64,000 nucleotides of DNA from Candidatus Sungiibacteriota bacterium (GTDB lineage Bacteria > Patescibacteriota > Minisyncoccia > Sungbacterales > JACQCQ01), in assembly GCA_016201505.1 (NCBI GenBank), contig JACQCQ010000002.1, positions 144,903 to 208,902 of the forward strand. Direction: 5' to 3'. Under the pieces are notes generated by a model that worked only from the letters and a program-made list of their open reading frames with translations, had not been told where the DNA came from and made no database searches. The translations under genes and the position numbers were made by a program. Shown here piece after piece: positions 4,481 to 64,000 of this stretch. Position 1 is the stretch's first letter; every line of letters begins with the position of its first letter.

Positions 4481-5878
4481 TTGTATATAAGTCTAAATCA
4501 TCTGGCTGTGTTTAGTAGAATACAAAAGGTAAGTCTATTATTGGTGCTGGTCATTGGGGCTTCGGTTTTTTCTGCGCCGCAGCTGATTTTCGGCGCAAGT
4601 GGGACCCTGACTCTCGCCGAGCGCGATCAGCTGACCCAGCAGTTAAATCAGCTTGAACAACAGTCTCAAGCCATCGGTCAGCAGATCCAGCAGGCCGCGC
4701 AGCAAGCCCGGTCCTTAAAAAACGAGCTTTCAATTTTAGATAACCAAATCAAGCAGGCGCAAATTGAGATTCGGAGGCTCGACTTGGTAATTCGCCAGGC
4801 TGACGCTGATATTTCCGCCAAGGTTGTATCGATTGAACGAACGAGTTTAAAAATCGGCGATGCCGAAAAACAATTAGCGGCTTCGCTCCGTGAGATTAGT
4901 CAGCTGGATAATGGGAATTTGCTTGAAATATTTTTGAAAAATAAAAATCTGTCCGACTTTTTTACCGCTTTGAATAGTCACGAAAAATTGCAGGCTGCGA
5001 TTAAGGGCAGTCTCGATAATTTAAAAGATTATCGGACTTCACTTGAAAATGAAAAAGCAGAACTCCAGGACTTTCGCGAGGGTCAGCAAGAAGCAAAATC
5101 TATTCAGGAAATCAACAAACGAAATCTTTCTGAAAAACGAAAGGAACGAGATGATTTATTAAAGCAAACGCAAGGTAAGGAGTCGCTCTATCAGCAGCTC
5201 CTAAGGAAAAATAATTCCGCTATCGCGGCTATCAAAAACAAATTGTATTACCTCGAGGAAATCGGCATCACGCCGGAAGAAGCCTTGGCTGCGGCAAAAC
5301 TGGCCTCACGGCGGACAAACATCCGCACGGCATTTCTCCTGGCTCTGCTTGAAGTTGAGACCGGCCGCCAGTTTGAAGACGGTCAATTGACCGTCGGTTC
5401 AAATCTTGGCCGAGGCAATTGGAAAACTGATATGTATGACTGTTATGTGAACTTAGGCAGAGTAAGCACCGCCGAGACGCAAAAGGCGGCCTTCTTTCAA
5501 ATTACGGGCGAGTTGGGTCTCGACCCTGATAAAATGCCTGTCTCACGAAAACCAAATTACGGCTGCGGCGGCGCGATGGGCCCCGCACAATTTATTCCAA
5601 CCACCTGGCTCAAATTTTCCGACCGGGTTGCCAGTCTAACGGGAAAAGGTGTGGCCAGCCCCTGGAATACGGAAGACGCATTCACGGCTGCTGCGCTCTT
5701 TTTGGGCGACGCGGGCGCGACTTCTCAAACGAAAGCCGGGGAGTTTGCTGCAGCGCACATCTATATTAGCGGCCGAGCCAATTGCCCTTCGACCGGCAGC
5801 GCCAGGGTCGCTTGTATTTCCTATGCCAACCGCATCTATTCGCTTTCGCAAGATATCGAACGCGCCTTAGAAACTTAA
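4481..5878 (+). CDS. secreted or membrane-anchored coiled-coil protein with a C-terminal lytic transglycosylase (MltB/SLT_2-like) domain
   Basis: N-terminal hydrophobic segment, a long Q/L-rich heptad region, and a C-terminal YGCGGAMGPAQFIPTTW plus DAFTAAALFL region resembling lytic murein transglycosylase B. Confidence 0.5.
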   Translation: MYISLNHLAVFSRIQKVSLLLVLVIGASVFSAPQLIFGASGTLTLAERDQLTQQLNQLEQQSQAIGQQIQQAAQQARSLKNELSILDNQIKQAQIEIRRLDLVIRQADADISAKVVSIERTSLKIGDAEKQLAASLREISQLDNGNLLEIFLKNKNLSDFFTALNSHEKLQAAIKGSLDNLKDYRTSLENEKAELQDFREGQQEAKSIQEINKRNLSEKRKERDDLLKQTQGKESLYQQLLRKNNSAIAAIKNKLYYLEEIGITPEEALAAAKLASRRTNIRTAFLLALLEVETGRQFEDGQLTVGSNLGRGNWKTDMYDCYVNLGRVSTAETQKAAFFQITGELGLDPDKMPVSRKPNYGCGGAMGPAQFIPTTWLKFSDRVASLTGKGVASPWNTEDAFTAAALFLGDAGATSQTKAGEFAAAHIYISGRANCPSTGSARVACISYANRIYSLSQDIERALET

Positions 5879-9847: not shown

Positions 9848-10028
9848 CGTGGATAACCTGTGAATTAGTCAAGTGAATTTGATAAAAAATTGGCTCATAT
9901 GAGCCAATTTTTTATTTTATATGGAGTCGCGTGAAATATGTTTGACAATGGTACATTGTGGCTACTATGATTATTCCAGTGGTGATTTGTGGATAAAAGT
10001 GGGGATAAGTCAGCTCTTTTGTGGATAA
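9848..10028 (+). promoter_or_regulatory. cluster of DnaA-box-like sites (TGTGGATAA, the reverse complement of TTATCCACA) at 9848-9856 (one mismatch), 9988-9996 and 10020-10028, plus a degenerate copy near 9999-10010
   Basis: Same-orientation 9-mers matching the DnaA box consensus, flanking the tRNA terminator and an AT-rich tract, about 250 bp upstream of mraZ. Confidence 0.4.
9888..9920 (+). terminator. rho-independent terminator (AATTGGCTCATATGAGCCAATT followed by a T-run) after tRNA-Tyr
   Basis: Perfect 9-bp stem with a T-run. An A-run upstream makes it potentially bidirectional. Confidence 0.75.
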
Positions 10029-10276: not shown

Positions 10277-10705
10277 ATGTTCATAGGCGAATACCGACAT
10301 GCAATGGACGAAAAGGGGCGGGTGGCGATCCCGGCTAAATTTCGCAAACTCCTGCAACAGGGGGTCGTGGTAACAAGAGGCATTGAGCATCATCTGTATC
10401 TCTACCCGAGTGAGGTCTGGTCGCATTTAGCGGAAAAGCTCTCGAGGCTGCCTATCAATCAATCAAACTCGCGCGCTCTTTCGCGCCACATGTTGGGCGG
10501 AGCGATTGAAGCCGAGATCGATTCGCAAGGTAGGATTTTGATCCCCGAGTATTTACGCCAGCATGCCGGCATAGGGAATCAAGCCGTGATGGTCGGGCTC
10601 TACGATCGGGTTGAAATCTGGGCGTACGAGAGATGGCAGGAATATCGTTCCCGCACCGAGGCAAATACGGAAAGTATCGCCGAGGAGCTTAGCGGACTTG
10701 CTTAG
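10277..10705 (+). CDS. mraZ: transcriptional regulator MraZ
   Basis: 142 aa. MFIGEYRHAMDEKGRVAIPAKFR... duplicated MraZ fold. Confidence 0.85.
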   Translation: MFIGEYRHAMDEKGRVAIPAKFRKLLQQGVVVTRGIEHHLYLYPSEVWSHLAEKLSRLPINQSNSRALSRHMLGGAIEAEIDSQGRILIPEYLRQHAGIGNQAVMVGLYDRVEIWAYERWQEYRSRTEANTESIAEELSGLA

Positions 10706-15694: not shown

Positions 15695-15732
15695 CCTATA
15701 AATACGATAGACTAGTCTATCGTACTTATAGG
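15695..15732. repeat. 38-bp palindrome copy 1 (CCTATAAATACGATAGACTAGTCTATCGTACTTATAGG), 51 bp upstream of the peptidase gene
   Basis: Near-perfect dyad (one mismatch). The CGATAGACTAGTCTATCG core is identical to the copies at 24962 and 54090. Confidence 0.7.
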
Positions 15733-15782: not shown

Positions 15783-16871
15783 ATGAAAACTTTTCTGGTT
15801 CTTTCTTTGGCGGTGTCTTTTCTGGTGGCTGCACCGGTAAAAGCGGCCTATCACTTTTCTGACTTTCGCGGCCGGCCGCCGATTCATGTAAACGGCAGCT
15901 CATCAAAAACACCAAAAGGCATAACGCCGGATCAAATAAAAAAGATTTATAGGTTACCTGCTGGCGGGGGGAGCGGAACGATTGCAATTATCGGCGCCTA
16001 TGATGACCCGTCAATCGAGGCGGACGTAAACGATTTCAGCCGCCAATTTAATCTGCCTGTCTGCACGACGGCCAACGACTGCTTTGAGAAACACAAAATG
16101 AGCCCGTCAATGAAATCGGATAGCGGCTGGGCAATGGAGATAACGCTTGACGCAGAATGGGCGCATGCCGTTGCCCCGCGAGCTAAAATTCTCTTAGTTG
16201 AGGCGACAACGCCGAGCGGCGCGAATTTATTAAAAGCCGTGGACTATGCGGCGAGCCGCAAAGATGCTGTGTCTATTTCCATGAGCTGGGGTGGCGCGGA
16301 ATTTCCGGAAGAGACAACACTTGATTCGCATTTTATCTCTAAATCGGGCGCGGTGTTTTTTGCTTCCTCGGGCGATAATGGCGCCGGTGCTTCATGGCCA
16401 GCCGCGTCCCCAAATGTCATCGGCGTTGGCGGAACATCGCTTCAATTAAAATCAGATGGGACTCTGTCAAAAGAAACCGCCTGGAGCGGGTCGGGCGGCG
16501 GGGTGAGCGCCTACGAGAAACAACCCGACTATCAAACGAACTACTCAATCCCGCGAGCCAAGGGCCTGCGCGCCATCCCCGACGTCGCCTATGACGCTGA
16601 TCCCATCTCGGGCTTTCCGATTATTCGGCTGGGCACTTGGCGAGAAGTCGGCGGGACGTCAGCCGGTGCGCCGCAATGGGCCGCCATCGCCGCACTCTCC
16701 AATGGATTTTCAATTCAAGATCTCTACAAAGATAAAGCCGCCTCGAACTCTGCAAAGTTTTTCCGCGACATCACCAGCGGCTCCAATGGTTCATGCGCGT
16801 ATTACTGCGACGCCCGGAGGCATTATGACTACGTTACAGGGCTCGGAACGCCGCTAACCACGAATTTTTGA
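15783..16871 (+). CDS. secreted serine peptidase, S53 (sedolisin/kumamolisin)-like within the S8/S53 clan
   Basis: Signal peptide MKTFLVLSLAVSFLVAAPVKA. GGTSAGAPQWAAIAAL catalytic-Ser motif of the S53 type, and a conserved Asp region (AIIGAYDD). Confidence 0.55.
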   Translation: MKTFLVLSLAVSFLVAAPVKAAYHFSDFRGRPPIHVNGSSSKTPKGITPDQIKKIYRLPAGGGSGTIAIIGAYDDPSIEADVNDFSRQFNLPVCTTANDCFEKHKMSPSMKSDSGWAMEITLDAEWAHAVAPRAKILLVEATTPSGANLLKAVDYAASRKDAVSISMSWGGAEFPEETTLDSHFISKSGAVFFASSGDNGAGASWPAASPNVIGVGGTSLQLKSDGTLSKETAWSGSGGGVSAYEKQPDYQTNYSIPRAKGLRAIPDVAYDADPISGFPIIRLGTWREVGGTSAGAPQWAAIAALSNGFSIQDLYKDKAASNSAKFFRDITSGSNGSCAYYCDARRHYDYVTGLGTPLTTNF

Positions 16872-16920: not shown

Positions 16921-16968
16921 GAACTAGTACATTTTATCCGATCGGATAAAATGTACTAGTTCTTTTTC
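16921..16968 (+). terminator. 42-bp perfect palindrome (GAACTAGTACATTTTATCCGATCGGATAAAATGTACTAGTTC) followed by a T-run. Likely an intrinsic terminator
   Basis: 21-bp perfect stem followed by TTTTTC, 50 bp after the peptidase stop. Confidence 0.6.
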
Positions 16969-24961: not shown

Positions 24962-24997
24962 CTATAAATCCGATAGACTAGTCTATCGGATTTATAG
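24962..24997. repeat. 36-bp palindrome copy 2 (CTATAAATCCGATAGACTAGTCTATCGGATTTATAG), perfect, 26 bp upstream of the minus-strand membrane-protein gene
   Basis: Perfect dyad, same core as copies 1 and 3. Confidence 0.7.
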
Positions 24998-25170: not shown

Positions 25171-25206
25171 CTTACCTATACCTCCCTATAGGTCGGTATA
25201 GGTAAG
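25171..25206 (-). terminator. hairpin CTTACCTATACC-N12-GGTATAGGTAAG immediately after the uvrC stop (no U-tract)
   Basis: 12-bp perfect stem abutting the stop codon. Confidence 0.4.
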
Positions 25207-54089: not shown

Positions 54090-54127
54090 CCTATAAGTTC
54101 GATAGACTAGTCTATCGGACTTATAGG
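54090..54127. repeat. 38-bp palindrome copy 3 (CCTATAAGTTCGATAGACTAGTCTATCGGACTTATAGG), 18 bp upstream of the hrcA CIRCE
   Basis: Dyad with one mismatch, same core as copies 1 and 2. Confidence 0.7.
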
Positions 54128-54144: not shown

Positions 54145-54171
54145 TTAGCGCTCTTGACGTGAGACTGCTAA
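54145..54171 (+). promoter_or_regulatory. CIRCE-like operator (TTAGCGCTC-N9-GACTGCTAA) with an embedded TTGACG -35 for hrcA
   Basis: One mismatch per arm versus the consensus. Positioned at the hrcA-grpE-dnaK operon promoter. Confidence 0.65.
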
Positions 54172-55637: not shown

Positions 55638-57533
55638 ATGGCTAAAATAATCGGAATTGATTTAGGCACAACGAATTCAGCGGTCGCCTATGTTGAAGGA
55701 GGCGAACCAAAAATTATCGAAAACAAAGAAGGCAATCGGACCACGCCCTCGGTTGTCGCCTTGTCCAAGACCGGCGACCGCCTAGTTGGCCTCTTGGCAA
55801 AACGCCAGGCCGTGACCAATCCAAGAAACACTTTTTACTCGATTAAGCGTCTGATCGGGCGCAAATTTACGGATGCCGAAGTACAAAAAGATTTAAAACT
55901 CCTACCCTATGAGTTACGCGCATCCTCAAATGGCGGCGTTGAAGTGAAAATGGGAGAAAAGTGGGTCCGGCCGGAAGAAATCTCGGCCATGATTTTACAG
56001 AAATTAAAGCAGGACGCCGAAGAAAAGCTTGGAACGAGCATTACGGAGGCGGTCATTACGGTGCCGGCCTACTTTGATGACTCACAGCGAAAAGCGACAC
56101 AAGCCGCCGGCGAAATCGCGGGATTTACGGTGCGCCGCATCTTAAATGAACCGACAGCTGCCGCCCTCGCCTACGGACTCAATAAAAAGAAAGATGAGAA
56201 AATTGTGGTCTACGATTTTGGCGGAGGAACGTTTGACATATCGGTGCTCGAAATCGGAGACGACACGATTGAGGTAAAATCAACCGACGGGGATACGCAC
56301 TTGGGTGGTGACGACTTCGACCAGAAGATTATCAACTGGATCATTCACGAGTTTAAAAAAGATCAAGCCATTGATATCTCGAAAGACACCCTGGCCCTGC
56401 AGCGTTTGAAAGAGGCGGCGGAAAAAACGAAACACGAGCTCTCCTCAACCATCGAAACGGAAATTAATATCCCGTTCATTACGTCGGATGCGTCTGGACC
56501 AAAACATTTAGTTATGAAACTCTCGCGGGCTACGCTTGAGTCTCTAGTAAAAGATGACATCGATCGCTCGATCGAAATTACGAAACGCGCAGTTGAGGCC
56601 GCCGGATTTAAGCTCTCGGATGTTCATGAAATTATCCTGGTGGGCGGGCAAACCAGGATGCCTCTTATCCAGCAAGCAGTAAAAAATTTATTCGGCAAAG
56701 AACCGAATAAATCGATTAACCCGGACGAGGTGGTGGCGCTGGGGGCTGCCATCCAAGCCGGCATTATGCAGGGTGACGTAAAGGATATTTTGCTGCTCGA
56801 CGTCACTCCGCTCTCACTCGGCATCGAGACGCTCGGCGGCGTATTCACGAAGATCATCGAAAAAAATACGACGGTCCCAACCGCCAAGTCGCAAGTCTTT
56901 TCAACTGCGGCGGACAATCAGACGCAGGTTGAAATTCACGTGCTTCAAGGCGAACGCGAAATAGCCCACGATAATAAAACGCTGGCTCAATTTGTCCTTG
57001 ACGGCATCCCGCCCGCGCCTCGAGGCTTGCCGCAAGTTGAAGTTTCATTCGATATTGACGCCAACGGTATCCTGTCAGTAAAAGCCCGCGACAAATCAAG
57101 CGGCAAGGAGCAATCGGTCCGGGTTGAGGCCTCTTCTTCGCTTTCAAAAGACGAGATCGAACGCATGAAGAAGGATGCTGAAATACACGCCTCCGAAGAT
57201 AAGAAAAAGAAAGCGGAAATTGAGGCCAGAAACGCCGCTGATAGTCTTATTTATACGAGCGAGAAGTCCCTGCGTGATGCCGCGGATAAAGTCCCGCAAG
57301 ATCTAAAGACCGAGATCGAATCAAAGATTGCCGAATTAAAACGCGCGAAGGATACTGGAGGTACGTCCCAAATTGAAAAAGCCTCGCAAGACCTTTCGCA
57401 GTCGCTATCCAAGATCGGCGAAATTCTCCACCAGGCGAGCCAGTCTCAAGAGACCGGCAGTGCCGATAAAAAAGATGAGAATGTGCAAGATGCGGAGTAT
57501 AGCGAAAAACCAAGTGACGAACCGACGACGTAA
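55638..57533 (+). CDS. dnaK: molecular chaperone DnaK
   Basis: 631 aa, full Hsp70 architecture ([16 protein letters not shown]). Confidence 0.95.
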
Positions 57534-58459
57534 TGCAAATGAGTTCTAAAATTAAAGAGGGCGTTTTGGCCGGACTCACCATCGTAGCTAGTGTCGGCGC
57601 TCTTTTTTTCGGTGCCTCCCACGGGCTTATCTACGAAACCGGCGTATTGATCCTTATTTCTGTTCTTCTCTATAGTTGTTCTACGGTTTTAATTCCTTGG
57701 AGCGCCTTAGGATACGCTATCCCCGTTATTCCGGTTCTCGTAAGTTTAATCTGGCTACCCTCGCAGGTTGGCATTGCAGTCGCAATTTTGGCGGCATCAG
57801 TTTTCGCGGCTTTTTCCTGGCATTTTGCCAAACAAGAAATTTCGATTATGCTCGGCACCCATAGCGCACGCATTTTGCGGGCTGCCATCCCCAGCTTTCT
57901 TACTGCGGTCTCGTTGCTCGCGACAGTTTTCTATTATGTTGATCACGCCTCACCCGAACGCGTCACATTAATTCCCCGAACGGTATTCAACCTAATATTT
58001 CCTTACACCCAGAGCCTGATCCAAGGGGCTCTCGGCGTTCATTTTGAAGTAAAAGCCAATGAACGAGTCGACGACCTTCTGCGCCAGGTTATTGAAAATG
58101 AATCTGGTCGGGCGCTGGTACGCGCTCCCAGAATAAAAGAGCAGCTGATTGAACTGGGGGTAATAAAAGCGCGGGAGGATCTGTCTCGCCAATTTGGCAT
58201 AGCCATCGCCCCAAATGACAGTGTGGGAAGCCTCTTCTATACTATAGCCAATAAAAAGGCGGATGATTTGGTGAGGCCCTACTCTCGATACCTGCCGATC
58301 GCCCTATCACTCGGCGTGTTCTTGACCCTTAAAACGGCTTCACTCCTTATATACTGGTTCATGATTATTACGGTGCCCGGCATCCTGTGGCTTGCGAGAA
58401 AAGCGGGGGTCATTCGGGATATATCAACCACGGTCACGGTAACTCACTATTCACTCTAA
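57533..58459 (+). CDS. polytopic membrane protein of unknown function, inserted between dnaK and dnaJ
   Basis: 308 aa, about six predicted TM helices and a 100-aa soluble loop. Start overlaps the dnaK stop, and the 3' end overlaps the upstream in-frame ATG of dnaJ. Confidence 0.5.
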
Positions 58460-58464
58460 CTTTT

Positions 58465-59565
58465 ATGGCCGAGAAAGATTTCTATACCACCTTGGGCATT
58501 CCGAAAAATGCCACCCAAGATGAAATAAAAAAAGCCTATCGCAAGCTGGCGCATCAGTACCATCCGGACAAAGGCAATGGCAACGATGAGAAATTCAAGC
58601 AAATAAACGAGGCCTACCAGGTGCTCGGCGATGAAGCGAAGCGAAAACAATATGACCAATTCGGCCAAACATTCAATGCGGCCAGCGGGTTTAACCCGGG
58701 CGGATTTCAATGGTCTGATGTTTTTAGAAATCAGGGGAACAGCGCCGGGTTTAATTTCAGCGCTAACTTTGATTTTGGCGACATTCTGGAAAATGTATTC
58801 GGCTTTAATGCCGATTCCCGCCAGGGGAAGGGTGGGTCTCGAGGCAAGGACCTGGTACTGGAACTTGCGATTCCGTTTGAAGAAAGCATTTTAGGCGGCA
58901 AAGAGACAATCGAAATTAAACGTACGGCACTATGCCGAAAATGTAACGGGACTGGAGGCGAACCCGGCATAAAAATGAAAACCTGCACAACCTGTCAGGG
59001 GAAGGGGAATGTGCAAAAAACTGAAAGAACTATCCTCGGCACTGTTACTCGAGTTGAAACATGTCCGATATGTCGAGGGCGCGGAGAAATCCCGACGAAG
59101 CCCTGCGATGTGTGCGACGGGAAAGGCACCGAGAGGATATCTGAAACAATCGAACTAGTAATTCCAAGGGGGATCACCGCTGACGATACGATGAAGCTAT
59201 CCGGCAAGGGAGAAATCAGCGATCCCATGTCTCCGCCGGGGGATCTTTACGTGCGCATTAAAATCCTGCCGCATAAGACGTTTCGACGCCAAGCCGATAA
59301 CCTGATCATGCAGCTCCCAATCAAAGTTTCTCAAGCAATCTTAGGCGACAGCGTAACCGTCGAGACCCTTGAGGGAAAAATTAGTCTTAAGATCCCGGGG
59401 GGCACCCAGTCGGGAGATATTCTGCGGGTTCGCGGAAAAGGCGTGCCAGAGGCGAGGGCCTATGGGCATGGTGACCTTCTGATTGAGATAAGAGTTGAAA
59501 TCCCGCGCAAGGTTAGTAAAAGGGGGAAAGAAGCCATCGAGAGTCTAAAAGAAGAAGGCTTCTAG
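58465..59565 (+). CDS. dnaJ: molecular chaperone DnaJ
   Basis: Start at [13 protein letters not shown]-domain HPD, G/F region, four CxxCxGxG zinc-finger repeats. Confidence 0.9.
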
Positions 59566-59655
59566 ATAAATAAATCGAAATAATAGAGTATTTCGTTTTA
59601 TCGCGTTAGCGTCCTATTGTGTAAAACTTCATACGAAGTATAATCCACTCTAGAT

Positions 59656-60240
59656 ATGGCGCGAGTCATTGTGGAGAGAGAGGATCGAATGCGAAAGGGC
59701 CAGATTGCGGAGGAGATCCTGCGGGTTTTAAGCCATCGGCCTATTTTTTTGTCTTCACCAAAGGCGAGCGCCGCCAGCCAGATACTTCTATCTAAACTTG
59801 AAGCCAAGGGGATTGGCAGACGACGCAGAAATAACGTAAAAATTGCCATTGATAGGCTAAGGCGACAGCGCTGCATCGAGTATAGCCATGAAAGCGATAA
59901 GCACCTATTACGTTTAACAGATTCCGGTGAACGTCGACTCTTACGCTATCAGATCTTTCATTTGAAGCTGGCAGTTTCGCGCTGGGATAAAATCTGGAGA
60001 ATTATCCTGTTTGATATCCCGGAAGAAAAGAAAATGGCTCGAGATTCCATAACCAGGAAGTTAAAAAATATGGGATTTTATCAGTTTCAACGGAGCGTCT
60101 TCGTACACTACCTTGATTGCCAGCAGGAGGTTAATCTCATTACCGATTACTTTAACGTACGAGAATACTTCACACTCATAGAAGCTTTTGAGCTCGGAAA
60201 TCAAGAATATAAGGCCAAAAGCTTCTTCGAGTTAAGCTAA
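59656..60240 (+). CDS. PaaX-like putative transcriptional regulator (N-terminal wHTH-like region plus a Cas2-like fold domain)
   Basis: WDKIWRIILFDIPEEKKMARDSITRKLKNMGFYQFQRSVF matches the W-D-x-x-W-LLL...G(F/Y)...QxSVF pattern shared by PaaX-family regulators and Cas2. No CRISPR array nearby. Confidence 0.4.
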   Translation: MARVIVEREDRMRKGQIAEEILRVLSHRPIFLSSPKASAASQILLSKLEAKGIGRRRRNNVKIAIDRLRRQRCIEYSHESDKHLLRLTDSGERRLLRYQIFHLKLAVSRWDKIWRIILFDIPEEKKMARDSITRKLKNMGFYQFQRSVFVHYLDCQQEVNLITDYFNVREYFTLIEAFELGNQEYKAKSFFELS

Positions 60241-60641
60241 GATACGTATCAATTTAATCTAACAAGATTTAAAGCGTATCAATCTAGTAATACTAAAAAT
60301 TTATGTTAAACAGCAATTTCGTTATTCTGTTATAACGATAGAACGTATTACTTAATTAACCATAAGGAATTTTTAGTATAGTTATGAAAAATCTAATCAA
60401 TAATTTATAAAACAATATAAAATCCTGATTTTTGTCTGAACAAAGCCTGCCGAACTATCAGGGGTCAACTAAATGGGCAAAGCAGAGTTACCGGACCAGC
60501 CAGAGCCGGCATTTTTTTAAAATGGGGGATCGAAAAATTTGAAAAATTAAAATTTTTACTATTCTTTCGTAACTTATCCACATAAAAGAATTGACGCAGA
60601 AGCAGTATCATAAAGATACGCTGACGTATCAAGATGGAGCT
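60241..60641. repeat. AT-rich (about 30% GC) spacer carrying repeated palindromic GATACGTATC(AA) / CGTATCAA motifs at 60241, 60277 and 60617-60638; further copies lie inside the downstream gene at 61023 and 60985
   Basis: Four occurrences of the 8-mer CGTATCAA within about 800 bp. A GATACG-CTG-ACGTATC dyad overlaps the start codon of the giant gene. Confidence 0.5.
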
Positions 60642-63600
60642 TAAATTAATTCGACTTCGAGAAGCCGCAAAAATTTCTGGAATTCACCAGGACTATTTAC
60701 GAGTTCTCATTAATCGAAAAAACTTAAGAGCAAAAAAAATCGGCCGAGATTGGTTTATTACGGCCCAAGATTTAACCGATTACCTCAAACAATCAAAAAA
60801 ACGATCAAATGGTATTCAGCTGCAAAAGGCTGAAAAAGTTAGCGTCACCCTTAAGCCAAGCCATAACCTAAAAATAAGGCGAAAATTATACCAGCCAGAG
60901 GCTACGCTTGTTCGCACGATACACGAGAACATTTTTTCAAACTTCAATCAGGCAAGGAATTATGAAAAAATAACTTCAGCAGAAAAAAGATACGATCTTT
61001 ACTTAAATCAGCCTAAATCTCGATACGTATCAAACTACAAGCCAATTTTTATATCAATTTCCGCGATTGTATTGGCTTTGGGGGGCTATTTTGCGGCATT
61101 GAATTTTGGCAGTGAGCTGATGCGGGCGGCTAATGAGTCAGGTATCAGGATCCGCAATTTAGCGAACTACCTAACACCGGAGATTACGCCGGCTCCAATT
61201 GGCCAAACGCGCTCACATGCCTATACCTCAATTCAGGAAGGTTCAAATGCGGACCTCGGCCGCGTGTTGCGTGGATTTAGTGAGCTTGGTGCGGGACAGG
61301 CAACTTCCGGATTCTCTAATTTAATTCAAATCGCAAGCCGCACGCCGTATGAGATATACCGGGGTATTCAAAACGGGATTTCCGGCGTGTCGGTAAGCCC
61401 GCAAGCATCCAACCAGCTCTCCGGGATTTTTAAAAGCATCCAGCCCTTCTTCTCCAATCTGCTGATTGGCTCAAATCTCCGCGAGACGGTAACAATTCCG
61501 TCTGATCTCGGCCTGATTCTTCCGCCCCAAGTCGCTTCAACGCCGACAACAACAAAAGTGTCAGTTCCTACCGGCGCATCTTCCGGCACCCAGATTGTCG
61601 CAAAACAAACAATCATCCAAAAGATCGTACCGGCCGACACCGCAAAAATTAAAGCGGAACTTTTAGCCTATATCAGCTCGCAAACGGCTGACTTTAAGAA
61701 CCAGCTTTTTAATCTCTCAAATAAAATCATCAGCCTCCAGGGAAATCTTGACAATACCACTCACGTCGCCGGGTCAACCTATCAAATGGTGAACTTAACG
61801 CAGCGAATAAATCAGCTCGACAGTTTGACAGTTACTGGCGGACTTTCGGTAACTTCCGGAAACCTTTCTGTCGCGGGAGGAATTTCTGCAGCAACCGCAT
61901 CATTTTCAAATTTGAGCGTTTCAAATTTAACCGTAACAAACTGCACCGGCTGCGGCGGCGGTTCCGGATCGCAAACTCCCTGGATTTCCAGCATCGAGGG
62001 CGCGGGATTTAATTTGGCCGACGTTGGCACGTTAACTGTTACGGTAATTAACGCGACCTCAACCTCCGCAACTTCAACATTTTCTACCGGCGGACTTGCC
62101 ATTGGCACCAGTCAATTTGTCATTCAGCAAACTTCAGGCCGCGTGGGCATCGGCACAACCTCGCCAGTTCAATTATTTTCTGTTGTCGGATCAGGATACT
62201 TGACCGGCGGACTCGGGGTTGGTGTCGCTACATCATCAGCCGGCGTCATCGAAACGACCGGTCAAATTCTGGTTGGCGGCCAATTAATTGTGCAAGGTGC
62301 CGCGACGTCAACCTTCACCGGCAACGGCATTAACGTGACGACAGGATGCGTCGCCATAAGCGGGACCTGTCTCGGATCAGGATCTGGCACCATTAATGCG
62401 GGAACAACAAATCGACTGGCGTACTATTCGGGCGCCTCCACCATCAGCTCGGCTAATTTTTTGGCTGTCGACGCGACAAATAATCTCTTCGGCATCGGTA
62501 CCTCTTCTCCCGCATCAGTTTTTTCACTGGCGTCAAACGGCCGCGTGGCTTCATCCACCCTGCCCAATGCTTCTTCAACCTCAATTTTTCTTTCTGGCGT
62601 AAACCTCCAATACGGCTCCTCATCCACCACCACCATTCCGAATTCATTGGTCAATGGCTGGAGTATTGCAACGTCATCCGATGTGGGGAGTTCACCCTTC
62701 CTCTCAATTGACACTTCGAACAATAGGATTGGTGCTTTCACCGTGGCACCGCAGACAGCTCTCGATATCAACGGGGGACTGCAAGCTCGGGGAGCATCAT
62801 CTACGATAGTCAACCTCTCAATCTGGAACGCCACGACGACCCTCTTGCTGGGGACTGGGGCAACGTCTACAATCTCGAACCTCTCCATCTGGAATGCCAC
62901 GACGACCCAACTGATTATTCCCGCATACTATGCCAGTGGCGCGGGGGGGACATTCGGCCACGGCACCTCGACTCCCGGATTCTTTGAGTCTTTTGCCTTA
63001 AATGGCGCCGCATCCTCAACACTGCCGAACGCCTCGTCAAGCTCGTTTTTCTTTTCGGGAATTAATCTGACCTATGGCTCCTCGTCAACCACGACGATTC
63101 CGGCGAACGTAAACGGCTTCTCGATCGCGACATCCTCTCAACTCGGCAGTTCGCCCCTTCTTTCGCTTAATGGATCAAGCGGAAATATCGGTGTCGGCTC
63201 AAGCTCGCCGGCGCAAACTTTCTCGGTCGCCGGCAACGCTTATGTCACCGGCGGATTCGGTATCGGCGCGACCAGAACTTCAAACGGACTTACGATTTCA
63301 TCCATCGCGAGCTGTACCGGCGGTCAAGCCCTGCAAACCGACAGTTTAGGATCAGTTTCCTGCGGAGCAGTTTCAAGCGGAGGCGCCTCGACAGGCGGCG
63401 GTTGGAGTTCAAGTGTTCCCAACCAAGCCGTAACGCTTGCTACCACAACTTTCTCGGTCGGTATTGGCGCAACTACGACGCCGTACGGAAAACTGACTGT
63501 GCTTTCGGGTGATGCCGCAACGACGACCTTGGTGCTTTATCCGGCCGCGTCTCAAACCGCCAATATCATTGATATCTACGACACTTCCGGCGCTCTATCC

Positions 63601-64000
63601 TCGGTATTAAATTCAAGCGGCAATCTGGGCCTTGCGAGCACAAGTCCCGCAACTAAACTTTCCGTCAACGGCTCGGGTTATTTTACCGGCGGCCTGGGAG
63701 TCGGAACACTGAATACTACCGCGGGCACAATTTCAGTGACTGGTCTGGCTACACTTTCGGGCGGAGTTCTCTCCAATGCGGCGTCCTCTACTATTTCCAA
63801 TCTCTCGATCTGGAACGCCACGACCACAAACCTCTTCATCCCCGCATTTAAGAATGGGCTGTCGTATCTGGCACTCGGCACCTCGACCCCAGCGGCCTAT
63901 GTTGCCTTTGCCTTAAATGGCGCGGTCGCCTCAAGCACCTTCCCGCAAGCCTCATCCACATCCATTTATCTTTCCGGCATCAATCTGACCTATGGCTCGT
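60634..64000 (+). CDS. giant repetitive Ser/Thr/Gly-rich putative cell-surface protein with N-terminal excisionase-type HTH and a single TM (partial; runs off the window end; absent from the supplied ORF track)
   Basis: Frame verified codon by codon from ATG 60634 to 63999 with no stop. N-terminus IRLREAAKISGIHQDYLRVLINRKNLRAKKIGRDWFITAQDLTDYL (HTH_17-like). TM YKPIFISISAIVLALGGYFAALNF. Then long degenerate repeats with recurring blocks (GIGTTSP..LxV.G.GY.TGGLGVG; NLSIWNATTT; LPNASSTSIFLSGVNLxYGSSSTTTIP). Confidence 0.6.
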   Translation, partial: MELKLIRLREAAKISGIHQDYLRVLINRKNLRAKKIGRDWFITAQDLTDYLKQSKKRSNGIQLQKAEKVSVTLKPSHNLKIRRKLYQPEATLVRTIHENIFSNFNQARNYEKITSAEKRYDLYLNQPKSRYVSNYKPIFISISAIVLALGGYFAALNFGSELMRAANESGIRIRNLANYLTPEITPAPIGQTRSHAYTSIQEGSNADLGRVLRGFSELGAGQATSGFSNLIQIASRTPYEIYRGIQNGISGVSVSPQASNQLSGIFKSIQPFFSNLLIGSNLRETVTIPSDLGLILPPQVASTPTTTKVSVPTGASSGTQIVAKQTIIQKIVPADTAKIKAELLAYISSQTADFKNQLFNLSNKIISLQGNLDNTTHVAGSTYQMVNLTQRINQLDSLTVTGGLSVTSGNLSVAGGISAATASFSNLSVSNLTVTNCTGCGGGSGSQTPWISSIEGAGFNLADVGTLTVTVINATSTSATSTFSTGGLAIGTSQFVIQQTSGRVGIGTTSPVQLFSVVGSGYLTGGLGVGVATSSAGVIETTGQILVGGQLIVQGAATSTFTGNGINVTTGCVAISGTCLGSGSGTINAGTTNRLAYYSGASTISSANFLAVDATNNLFGIGTSSPASVFSLASNGRVASSTLPNASSTSIFLSGVNLQYGSSSTTTIPNSLVNGWSIATSSDVGSSPFLSIDTSNNRIGAFTVAPQTALDINGGLQARGASSTIVNLSIWNATTTLLLGTGATSTISNLSIWNATTTQLIIPAYYASGAGGTFGHGTSTPGFFESFALNGAASSTLPNASSSSFFFSGINLTYGSSSTTTIPANVNGFSIATSSQLGSSPLLSLNGSSGNIGVGSSSPAQTFSVAGNAYVTGGFGIGATRTSNGLTISSIASCTGGQALQTDSLGSVSCGAVSSGGASTGGGWSSSVPNQAVTLATTTFSVGIGATTTPYGKLTVLSGDAATTTLVLYPAASQTANIIDIYDTSGALSSVLNSSGNLGLASTSPATKLSVNGSGYFTGGLGVGTLNTTAGTISVTGLATLSGGVLSNAASSTISNLSIWNATTTNLFIPAFKNGLSYLALGTSTPAAYVAFALNGAVASSTFPQASSTSIYLSGINLTYGS

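Follow-up and report, generated by a model that had tools for sequence, protein, structure and literature searches.

PaaX and Cas2 are among the described proteins that come closest to the one considered here. PaaX consists of a winged helix-turn-helix (wHTH), a dimerisation motif and a C-terminal domain, with phenylacetyl-CoA binding credited to the C-terminus; it represses its own promoter, and its operator, TGATTC-N27-GAATCA, is a palindrome of about 39 bp with 6-bp distal half-sites (PMC9493321). Three Pfam domains are found in the E. coli protein (PDB 8a39; equivalog model TIGR02277), namely PaaX-N (PF07848), PaaX_M (PF20803) and PaaX_C (PF08223, E=4.9e-29). Cas2 is a stand-alone protein of about 90 aa, normally encoded beside cas1 and a CRISPR array. 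The present analysis concerns a 194-aa protein encoded at 59656–60240 (+ strand, ATG start) of a 64-kb stretch of DNA from a Candidatus Sungiibacteriota bacterium (contig JACQCQ010000002.1), hereafter the window, where its gene lies between dnaJ and the gene of a giant, apparently membrane-anchored protein. The product is a short PaaX-like protein made of a wHTH and a Cas2-fold domain, neither an ortholog of PaaX nor a CRISPR Cas2. Its family is large, so far uncharacterised and mostly from Patescibacteria, and the members are typically bracketed by cognate palindromes.

Homology, fold and family

The open reading frame (ORF) was confirmed, and it includes the segment that an earlier note on this DNA had read as both PaaX-like and Cas2-like. 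This double likeness holds. The Pfam model PaaX_M, described as 'PaaX protein central Cas2-like domain', matches aa 109–184 with E=6.8e-18 and 65 bits, a higher score than that of E. coli PaaX itself (33.5 bits), and Cas2 models are matched just over their cutoffs: CRISPR_Cas2 (PF09827) at aa 114–157 with 23.9 bits, barely at its cutoff of 23.8, NCBIfam cas2 (TIGR01573) with 25.4 bits against 24.5, and 10 Cas2 models of PADLOC with E-values from 5e-7 to 4.5e-4. Because models from Pfam, NCBIfam and PADLOC all match, the resemblance is one of real homology and not of a chance spacing of residues. The name 'PaaX family' given in the earlier note stands as far as homology to PaaX_M goes, but not as equivalog membership, for which the protein scores 37.1 bits against the curated TIGR02277 cutoff of 264.55, with a partial match of aa 59–186 onto model positions 35–160 of 279. 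PF07848 misses its N-terminus, PF08223 finds no match and the chain ends at aa 194, and there are no paa genes nearby.

A sequence search against solved structures gave nothing significant for the window protein, PaaX being recovered by fold comparison only. In the AlphaFold2 model, built on an alignment of 118 sequences (mean pLDDT 88.5), a winged helix-turn-helix (helix 16–27, strand 30–32, helices 37–50 and 58–70, wing strands 74–87) is followed by a linker helix (89–101), a beta-alpha-beta-beta-alpha-beta domain (114–177) and a C-terminal helix. In Foldseek the chain as a whole finds its best counterpart in E. coli PaaX, with E=9e-6 across 181 columns, and the N-terminal part, the region of about 100 aa in which the earlier note had seen wHTH-like character, aligns with the recognition helix and wing of PaaX. 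This wHTH is PadR-like by fold alone, the Pfam PadR model finding no match and no sequence match being significant (best E-value 0.12). PadR proteins dimerise via a C-terminal helical extension, whereas the C-terminal part of the window protein is a Cas2 fold. The protein thus has the first two domains of PaaX in the same order (wHTH, linker, central Cas2-like domain) and ends where PaaX_C would start, with 194 aa compared with 316 in PaaX, so that it amounts to the N-terminal two thirds of PaaX minus the phenylacetyl-CoA-sensing effector domain. The Cas2-like ferredoxin-fold domain (aa 109–190, 59980–60225, + strand) is presumed to be a dimerisation module; going by the role of the central domain in PaaX, it is most likely the part through which the protein dimerises. 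It has the conserved Asp that closes beta-1 in Cas2: when aligned, Asp120 (codon 60013–60015, + strand) falls on the Asp of the 'YDV' motif in Cas2. A further part of the gene is marked at 59701–59916 (+ strand). An N-terminal transmembrane (TM) helix called by hydropathy scan in family members was judged to be a false positive because the segment coincides with helix 1, strand 1 and helix 2, which are buried in the confidently modelled wHTH, and resembles the N-terminal pattern of PaaX. The start at 59656 is backed by the orthologs, in which the N-terminal peptide is conserved; the alternative ATG at 59689, which follows a Shine-Dalgarno-like GAGAGGA, was rejected, as orthologs have CTA, CTG or CTC there and keep the upstream peptide.

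A profile search of 1.84 billion representative proteins returned 5322 relatives at E<=1e-3 and, with the threshold set at E<=1e-30, 567; with few exceptions they are 180–230 aa long. In the window's own clade, relatives at 47–52% identity come from groundwater metagenomes and metagenome-assembled genomes (MAGs), one of them a Sungbacteria MAG. At least 559 loci of the short wHTH + PaaX_M family were counted in the genomes of GTDB species; the best 80 of these lie nearly all in MAGs of Patescibacteria (the candidate phyla radiation, CPR), with multiple loci per genome, and one Giovannonibacteria MAG carries 4. Their public labels are a mixture of 'CRISPR-associated endonuclease Cas2', 'PaaX family regulator' and 'hypothetical', and a literature search found no link between PaaX or Cas2-like wHTH proteins and Patescibacteria. 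Among the 118 aligned members, PaaX_M matches all and the Cas2 Pfam model 91, while the PaaX N-terminal and PaaX_C models match none. G91, W114, F119, D120, P122, R129 and S147 are invariant, and the window protein, with its 194 aa, its two domains and every one of these residues, fits the family in length, architecture and invariant positions. In the profile alignment, the family has WRIVLFDIPE and QKSVF where E. coli PaaX has WLLLLS---EG and APSLM. Since the Cas2 signature (FDIP...QxSVF in the window protein) is thus kept by the family and lost in E. coli PaaX, the family is nearer to Cas2 than PaaX is at these positions.

Palindromes on both sides of the family genes

Shared sequence cores were first spotted in a few paralog loci and were then tested across all. 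The 8-mer GC[GT]AT[AC]GC occurs 2.56 times per kb within 200 nt of family genes, as compared with 0.052 per kb elsewhere in the same loci. In a test that makes no use of motifs, the sequences before and after one and the same gene share an ungapped repeat scoring at least 12 in 60 of 81 loci, while none of 81 cross-locus pairings reaches that score, and a repeat finder returned repeats of 39–54 nt about 640 nt apart in three loci (L035, L083 and L021). The bracketing element is palindromic; its median length is 40 bp, and the two copies have their centres about 49 nt ahead of the start and about 44 nt past the stop codon. Its central consensus is RCKATMGY, and its arms are paralog-specific: in the ychF-adjacent orthologous group the arms vary between genomes, and both copies within a genome agree. 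The downstream copy is present with the next gene co-directional (27/37) or convergent (14/18), and a third copy is found in some loci at the edge of an adjoining transcription unit. At 2180–7986 of L038, the sites take in first the PaaX_M gene and then a unit of two genes, which there and at 5813–8867 of L043 encodes a small membrane-anchored protein and a protein of 1394–1491 aa (1394 in L038). In the L038/L043 paralog lineage a member of the family thus lies beside the gene of a very large protein for the second time, independently of the case in the window.

Too little room for a promoter is left between the upstream copy and the start codon, so that this copy must overlap the promoter or the leader. 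From the position of the palindromes, the presence of a wHTH and the precedent of PaaX, the simplest reading is that the family proteins bind their own flanking palindromes and autoregulate. Members of the family would then most likely be autoregulatory local repressors, typically with their own palindromes of about 40 bp on either side and the upstream copy over the expected position of the promoter. No description of these palindromes was found in a literature search; they are newly found here, and suggest sequence-specific DNA binding as well as autoregulation. In being bracketed by copies of a palindrome that its own product is predicted to recognise, the typical gene of the family resembles those of the RAYTs, which are flanked by cognate REP palindromes, and of lambda CI, flanked by OL and OR. 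The fold and chemistry of RAYTs (HUH/Tyr) and the helix-turn-helix (HTH) of the lambda repressor are, however, unrelated to those of the family protein, and REPs are dispersed in many copies, whereas the family palindromes are essentially confined to the gene flanks and the boundaries of neighbouring units.

The GATACG elements and the giant gene

In the clade of the window, the likely cognate element would be a long palindrome with distal GATACG and CGTATC half-sites. Such an element, GATACG-N28-CGTATC, is found at 60241–60280 (+ strand), one base after the stop codon of the PaaX-like gene, where 1 match compares with 0.01 expected; it opens with the 10-bp palindrome GATACGTATC and can also be folded as an RNA hairpin (−9.3 kcal/mol, z −3.2). 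This 40-bp candidate operator resembles the PaaX operator in layout, as the family palindromes do in length. L103 also has an element of this kind past the stop, and in L101 and L102 the ortholog has one to either side, so that the bracketing seen across the family is there formed with the clade's own half-site. Between loci its 6-bp ends are conserved and its interior is not. GATACG and CGTATC half-sites are 5–10 times denser around the orthologs than elsewhere, with no enrichment around paralogs.

The same half-sites recur at the giant gene, the 5' part of which (60634–64000, + strand, 1122 codons) is open to the end of the window. A -10-like box, TATCAT (60606–60611), and the palindrome GATACG-CTGA-CGTATC (60615–60630), which is unique within the window in this exact form, together occupy 60605–60630 (+ strand), the palindrome lying 3 nt after the box and 3 nt before the giant ATG. 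They are part of a block with 8/8 conservation just before the giant gene: TTATCCACA, a TAnnAT box and, 3 nt on, GATACG-N4-C(G/A)TATC ending 3–9 nt before the ATG, with the palindrome at −19 in the window and at −25 in the other orthologous lineages. In four lineages the right arm carries a G-to-A change with no compensating change, which favours a DNA site over an RNA hairpin, and Rfam returned nothing significant in 59500–60700. Another GATACG pair, with N37 between its half-sites, occurs in three lineages at −142 relative to the giant ATG, and copies of GATACG-N27/28-CGTATC lie about 1.5 kb upstream of it in L101 and L002. Within the giant gene, GATACG-N31-CGTATC at 60989–61031 (+ strand), the second site being GATACGTATC, encodes R-Y-D ... 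R-Y-V-S, and the N31 pair is present at +355 to +403 in five lineages. The codons used at these intragenic sites are uniform (Tyr TAC in 10/10, with TAT:TAC at 133:68 in the genes of the window; Val GTA in 5/5; Ser TCA in 5/5), which indicates that the sites are constrained at the nucleotide level.

The giant protein has an HTH_17 domain at aa 8–53 (60655–60792, Pfam E=1.3e-6), a single TM segment at about aa 137–159 by hydropathy and then a long, repetitive region rich in Ser, Thr and Gly. This architecture, with a cytoplasmic excisionase/MerR-type HTH_17, one TM helix and very long extracellular Ser/Thr/Gly-rich repeats, is unusual and points to a DNA-binding surface protein that is tethered to the membrane. 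The family of its N-terminus is very narrow in public data, with only 4 fragmentary matches and 11 metagenomic loci, all from the same clade except for one distant match to the HTH only; no more distant homologs of the N-terminus were found, and the link to the giant gene could not be extended beyond the clade.

Taken together, these observations are consistent with a two-domain, sequence-specific DNA-binding protein (PadR-like wHTH, linker helix and Cas2-fold domain) whose predicted elements flank its own gene, overlap the -10/+1 region of the giant gene and recur inside the 5' end of the latter, so that the protein would probably repress the giant gene as well as itself. That the window copy binds the long palindromes of the GATACG type, and thereby represses both genes, is put at about even chances. 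Dimerisation, the assignment of proteins to sites, repression and the signal that relieves it are all inferred. Control of the giant gene, as proposed in the earlier note, is plausible and has gained from the conserved adjacency of the two genes and their shared GATACG palindromes; as an argument, however, the adjacency is inseparable from general synteny, because dnaJ is just as constant on the upstream side.

Several other observations weigh against regulation by the PaaX-like protein as outlined above. The adjacency to the giant gene is seen in one clade only, and across the family the neighbours are varied housekeeping genes. The flanks of the window gene score 8 in the repeat test, with no bracketing repeat detected, its upstream and downstream elements are not copies of one another, and the family-type cores are degenerate here (GTTATAAC at 60329 and GCGTTAGC at 59603), so that the clade presents two different candidate motif classes. 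In the family at large, the downstream palindrome is kept beside a convergent next gene and is not simply a promoter operator. The protein has no effector domain by which repression would be relieved; the invariant Cas2-type Asp and the polar invariants would be superfluous in a purely structural dimerisation module and hint at an additional activity. Finally, the HTH_17 of the giant protein could equally bind the GATACG sites.

This last point is the core of the main rival, in which the giant protein would act as a membrane-tethered autoregulator through its HTH_17, while the PaaX-like protein would act only on itself, via elements centred on GC(G/T)AT(A/C)GC, or on other targets, the adjacency being one of synteny only. 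Such a division of roles is rather unlikely, with some points in its favour: the HTH_17 has residues that are invariant across orthologs, a family-type core is found at −70 to −77 upstream of the orthologs' PaaX-like gene and again in the downstream spacer, and dnaJ, the PaaX-like gene and the giant gene are uniformly collinear where the neighbours of the family are otherwise unrelated. Autoregulation by the giant protein is, however, hard to square with the GATACG-N27/28-CGTATC elements that flank the PaaX-like gene in L101/L102 and that lie some 1.5 kb upstream of the giant ATG in L101 and L002; their arrangement, in which distal half-sites of 6 bp enclose about 28 bp that are not conserved, is the layout reported for the PaaX operator (PMC9493321), and the downstream palindrome of the orthologs, centred on GCTATAGC, keeps a constant distance from the giant ATG and not from the stop of the PaaX-like gene, which is also counted against this rival. 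A different role is suggested by the Cas2 signature, namely that of a Cas2/VapD-like nuclease targeted by its wHTH, the conserved Asp of which would cleave the flanking palindromes or RNA hairpins encoded by them, the gene and its two repeats forming, in place of a plain repressor, an RNA-processing unit or a cassette that is selfish or was once mobile. Asp120, which closes beta-1, is indeed invariant together with P122, R129 and S147, the Cas2 Pfam model recognises most members while E. coli PaaX has lost the signature residues, two direct copies of the palindrome of about 40 bp enclose the gene whatever the orientation of the neighbours, and several copies per genome are set between housekeeping genes. 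But the paralogs are old (about 30–45% identical), have private palindromes and keep stable orthologous positions, so that nothing points to their having moved recently; nor are the palindromes scattered (0.05/kb in the background), there is no cas1, transposase or integrase beside the gene in the window, and the signature residues could be kept for reasons of fold or dimer interface. A nuclease activity is putative, and this reading is distinctly improbable.

The position of the gene after dnaJ in each orthologous locus with sequence, and the spacer of just 90 nt with a weak hairpin in the window, would be expected of an accessory regulator of the heat-shock cluster hrcA-grpE-dnaK-dnaJ. This is very unlikely, as hrcA has a CIRCE-like operator of its own, the window has no GATACG pairs ahead of hrcA, grpE or dnaK, dnaJ is followed in the orthologous loci by strong hairpins and then T-rich sequence, and family members elsewhere are unlinked to chaperone genes. 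Least credible are the readings as a Cas2, stray or degenerate, that was left behind by a CRISPR-Cas system and as a true PaaX that represses phenylacetate catabolism. The scores just over the Cas2 cutoffs and the frequent public labels 'CRISPR-associated endonuclease Cas2' and 'PaaX family' might invite them, but both are already refuted for the window. The former is ruled out by the fusion of the Cas2-like domain to a wHTH, by the hundreds of homologs with the same architecture in housekeeping settings, often in multiple copies per genome, and by the lack of cas genes and, as the earlier note had stated, of any array in the 64 kb; the latter by the TIGR02277 score of 37.1 bits and the missing PaaX_C and paa genes.

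Neighbourhood, other features and significance

Besides the PaaX-like gene, the 41 ORFs covered by the Pfam scan of the window are housekeeping genes or have no family match, with neither cas nor paa genes among them; neither tandem repeats nor a CRISPR-like array were found. They include genes for glycolytic enzymes, ribosomal proteins, RF, EF-Ts, MraW, PBP, a Mur ligase, a TrpRS/TyrRS-type synthetase, RNase J, UvrA/C, GroEL, RpoB/C, FtsK, RecA, SSB, YchF, RmuC, RecR, DnaB, CysRS, HrcA, GrpE, DnaK and DnaJ. The block hrcA-grpE-dnaK-dnaJ is syntenic across lineages, and the order dnaJ, PaaX-like gene and giant-gene homolog is found in every orthologous locus with enough upstream sequence, at identities of about 81% for DnaK, 52–62% for DnaJ and 34–39% for the giant N-terminus. 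With this conserved housekeeping synteny, a gene GC content of 44.3% against 48.4% for the window and a family resident mostly in Patescibacteria, the suggestion in the earlier note of a remnant of a laterally acquired module is not supported. A multi-pass membrane protein of 308 aa with no Pfam match is encoded between dnaK and dnaJ (57533–58459); it is present in several orthologous loci (27–32% identity) and absent from the Sungbacteria MAG locus (L092). Just upstream of hrcA, the CIRCE-like inverted repeat TTAGCGCTC-N9-GACTGCTAA (54145–54171) overlaps a promoter-like pair, TTGACG / TGATAAT, and is expected to be the HrcA operator of the cluster.

dnaJ ends at 59565. The imperfect 32-bp palindrome that follows it (59570–59601, + strand; core CGAAATA..TATTTCG at 59576–59595; 13/16 in the palindrome scan), a hairpin of −6.0 kcal/mol (z −2.6) followed by TTTTA, is probably a weak dnaJ terminator, and it sits where the upstream palindrome of the family would. 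At 59603–59610 (+ strand), GCGTTAGC corresponds to the family core GCGATAGC with one mismatch; at the −70 to −77 position the orthologs have the canonical GCGATAGC or ACTATAGC. A candidate promoter of the PaaX-like gene, TTGTGT-N16-TATAAT (59617–59644, + strand), may be read from the sequence, with a perfect -10 box 11 nt before the ATG and a -35 box of only 3/6; the consensus promoter scan did not report it. The spacer between the PaaX-like and the giant genes is of 393 bp with 30% GC. It contains, at 60315–60351 (+ strand), a block homologous to the orthologs' palindrome AATTTCAATATAAT-GCTATAGC-...TGAAATATT, the centre of which is here the symmetric variant GTTATAAC (60329–60336). In L002, L006, L012, L092 and L101 this palindrome has GCTATAGC or GCTATCGC at its centre and a TATAAT-like box within the left arm, and it keeps a constant place relative to the giant ATG, at −282 to −325. 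The orthologs thus have canonical family cores on either side of the gene, with dissimilar arms. Because a strong hairpin with a T-run is found 50–125 nt past the stop of the PaaX-like gene in 5/6 orthologous loci examined, co-transcription with the giant gene appears unlikely; no obvious terminator follows the stop in the window. The DnaA-box-like 9-mer TTATCCACA, a perfect match at 60574–60582 (+ strand), is found upstream of the giant gene in all orthologous loci, 23–32 nt upstream of its -10-like box, and might be a site for DnaA or for another factor.

Elsewhere in the window, four 9-mers of this type (TTATCCACA, at most 1 mismatch) are clustered at 9848–10028 on the − strand, between tRNA-Tyr and an ORF at 10277, those at 9988 and 10020 being perfect, and a near-perfect 36-bp palindrome, GATAAAAAATTGGCTCATATGAGCCAATTTTTTATT, lies beside them at 9881–9916; the region is a candidate replication origin or dnaA-box regulatory region. 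Three near-identical intergenic palindromes of 36 bp, CTATAAnTnCGATAGAC|TAGTCTATCGnAnTTATAG, are found at 15696–15731, upstream of a 362-aa ORF with no Pfam match, at 24962–24997, upstream of a 137-aa ORF by uvrC, and at 54091–54126, between the divergent cysS and hrcA, with a CAATAG variant upstream of dnaB in L002. As candidate operators of the PaaX-like protein they fit poorly, their centre, GACTAGTC, departing from the family consensus and hrcA having its separate CIRCE-like site. Two further long palindromes, CTAGTACATTTTATCCGATCGGATAAAATGTACTAG at 16924–16959 (centre CCGATCGG, near the family type) and CTTACCTATACCTCCCTATAGGTCGGTATAGGTAAG at 25171–25206, do not adjoin any PaaX_M gene. 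A tRNA-Lys(CTT) of 94 nt called by ARAGORN at 16505–16598 (− strand) falls inside the 362-aa ORF (15783–16871, + strand), so that one of the two calls could be false, or else the tRNA could contain an insertion.

The genomes of Patescibacteria are tiny and encode few transcription factors that can be recognised as such, and the giant surface proteins of these bacteria are presumed to serve host attachment. On a bolder and improbable reading, the wHTH–Cas2-fold proteins would be a major undescribed class of local regulators and a living intermediate between Cas2/VapD nucleases and PaaX repressors, with paralogs that co-evolve with private palindromes of about 40 bp, a Cas2-like domain that contacts or cleaves nucleic acid at the palindrome centre, and a window copy that gates the giant surface protein. 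The hundreds to thousands of family members have so far been labelled 'Cas2', 'PaaX' or 'hypothetical'. If they are local regulators specific for their palindromes, then misannotated 'Cas2' genes in Patescibacteria should not be counted as CRISPR components, and every paralog would have a predicted binding site beside its gene, which would make the regulatory wiring directly testable. The family would also document an evolutionary bridge from the Cas2 fold to the architecture of the PaaX repressor.

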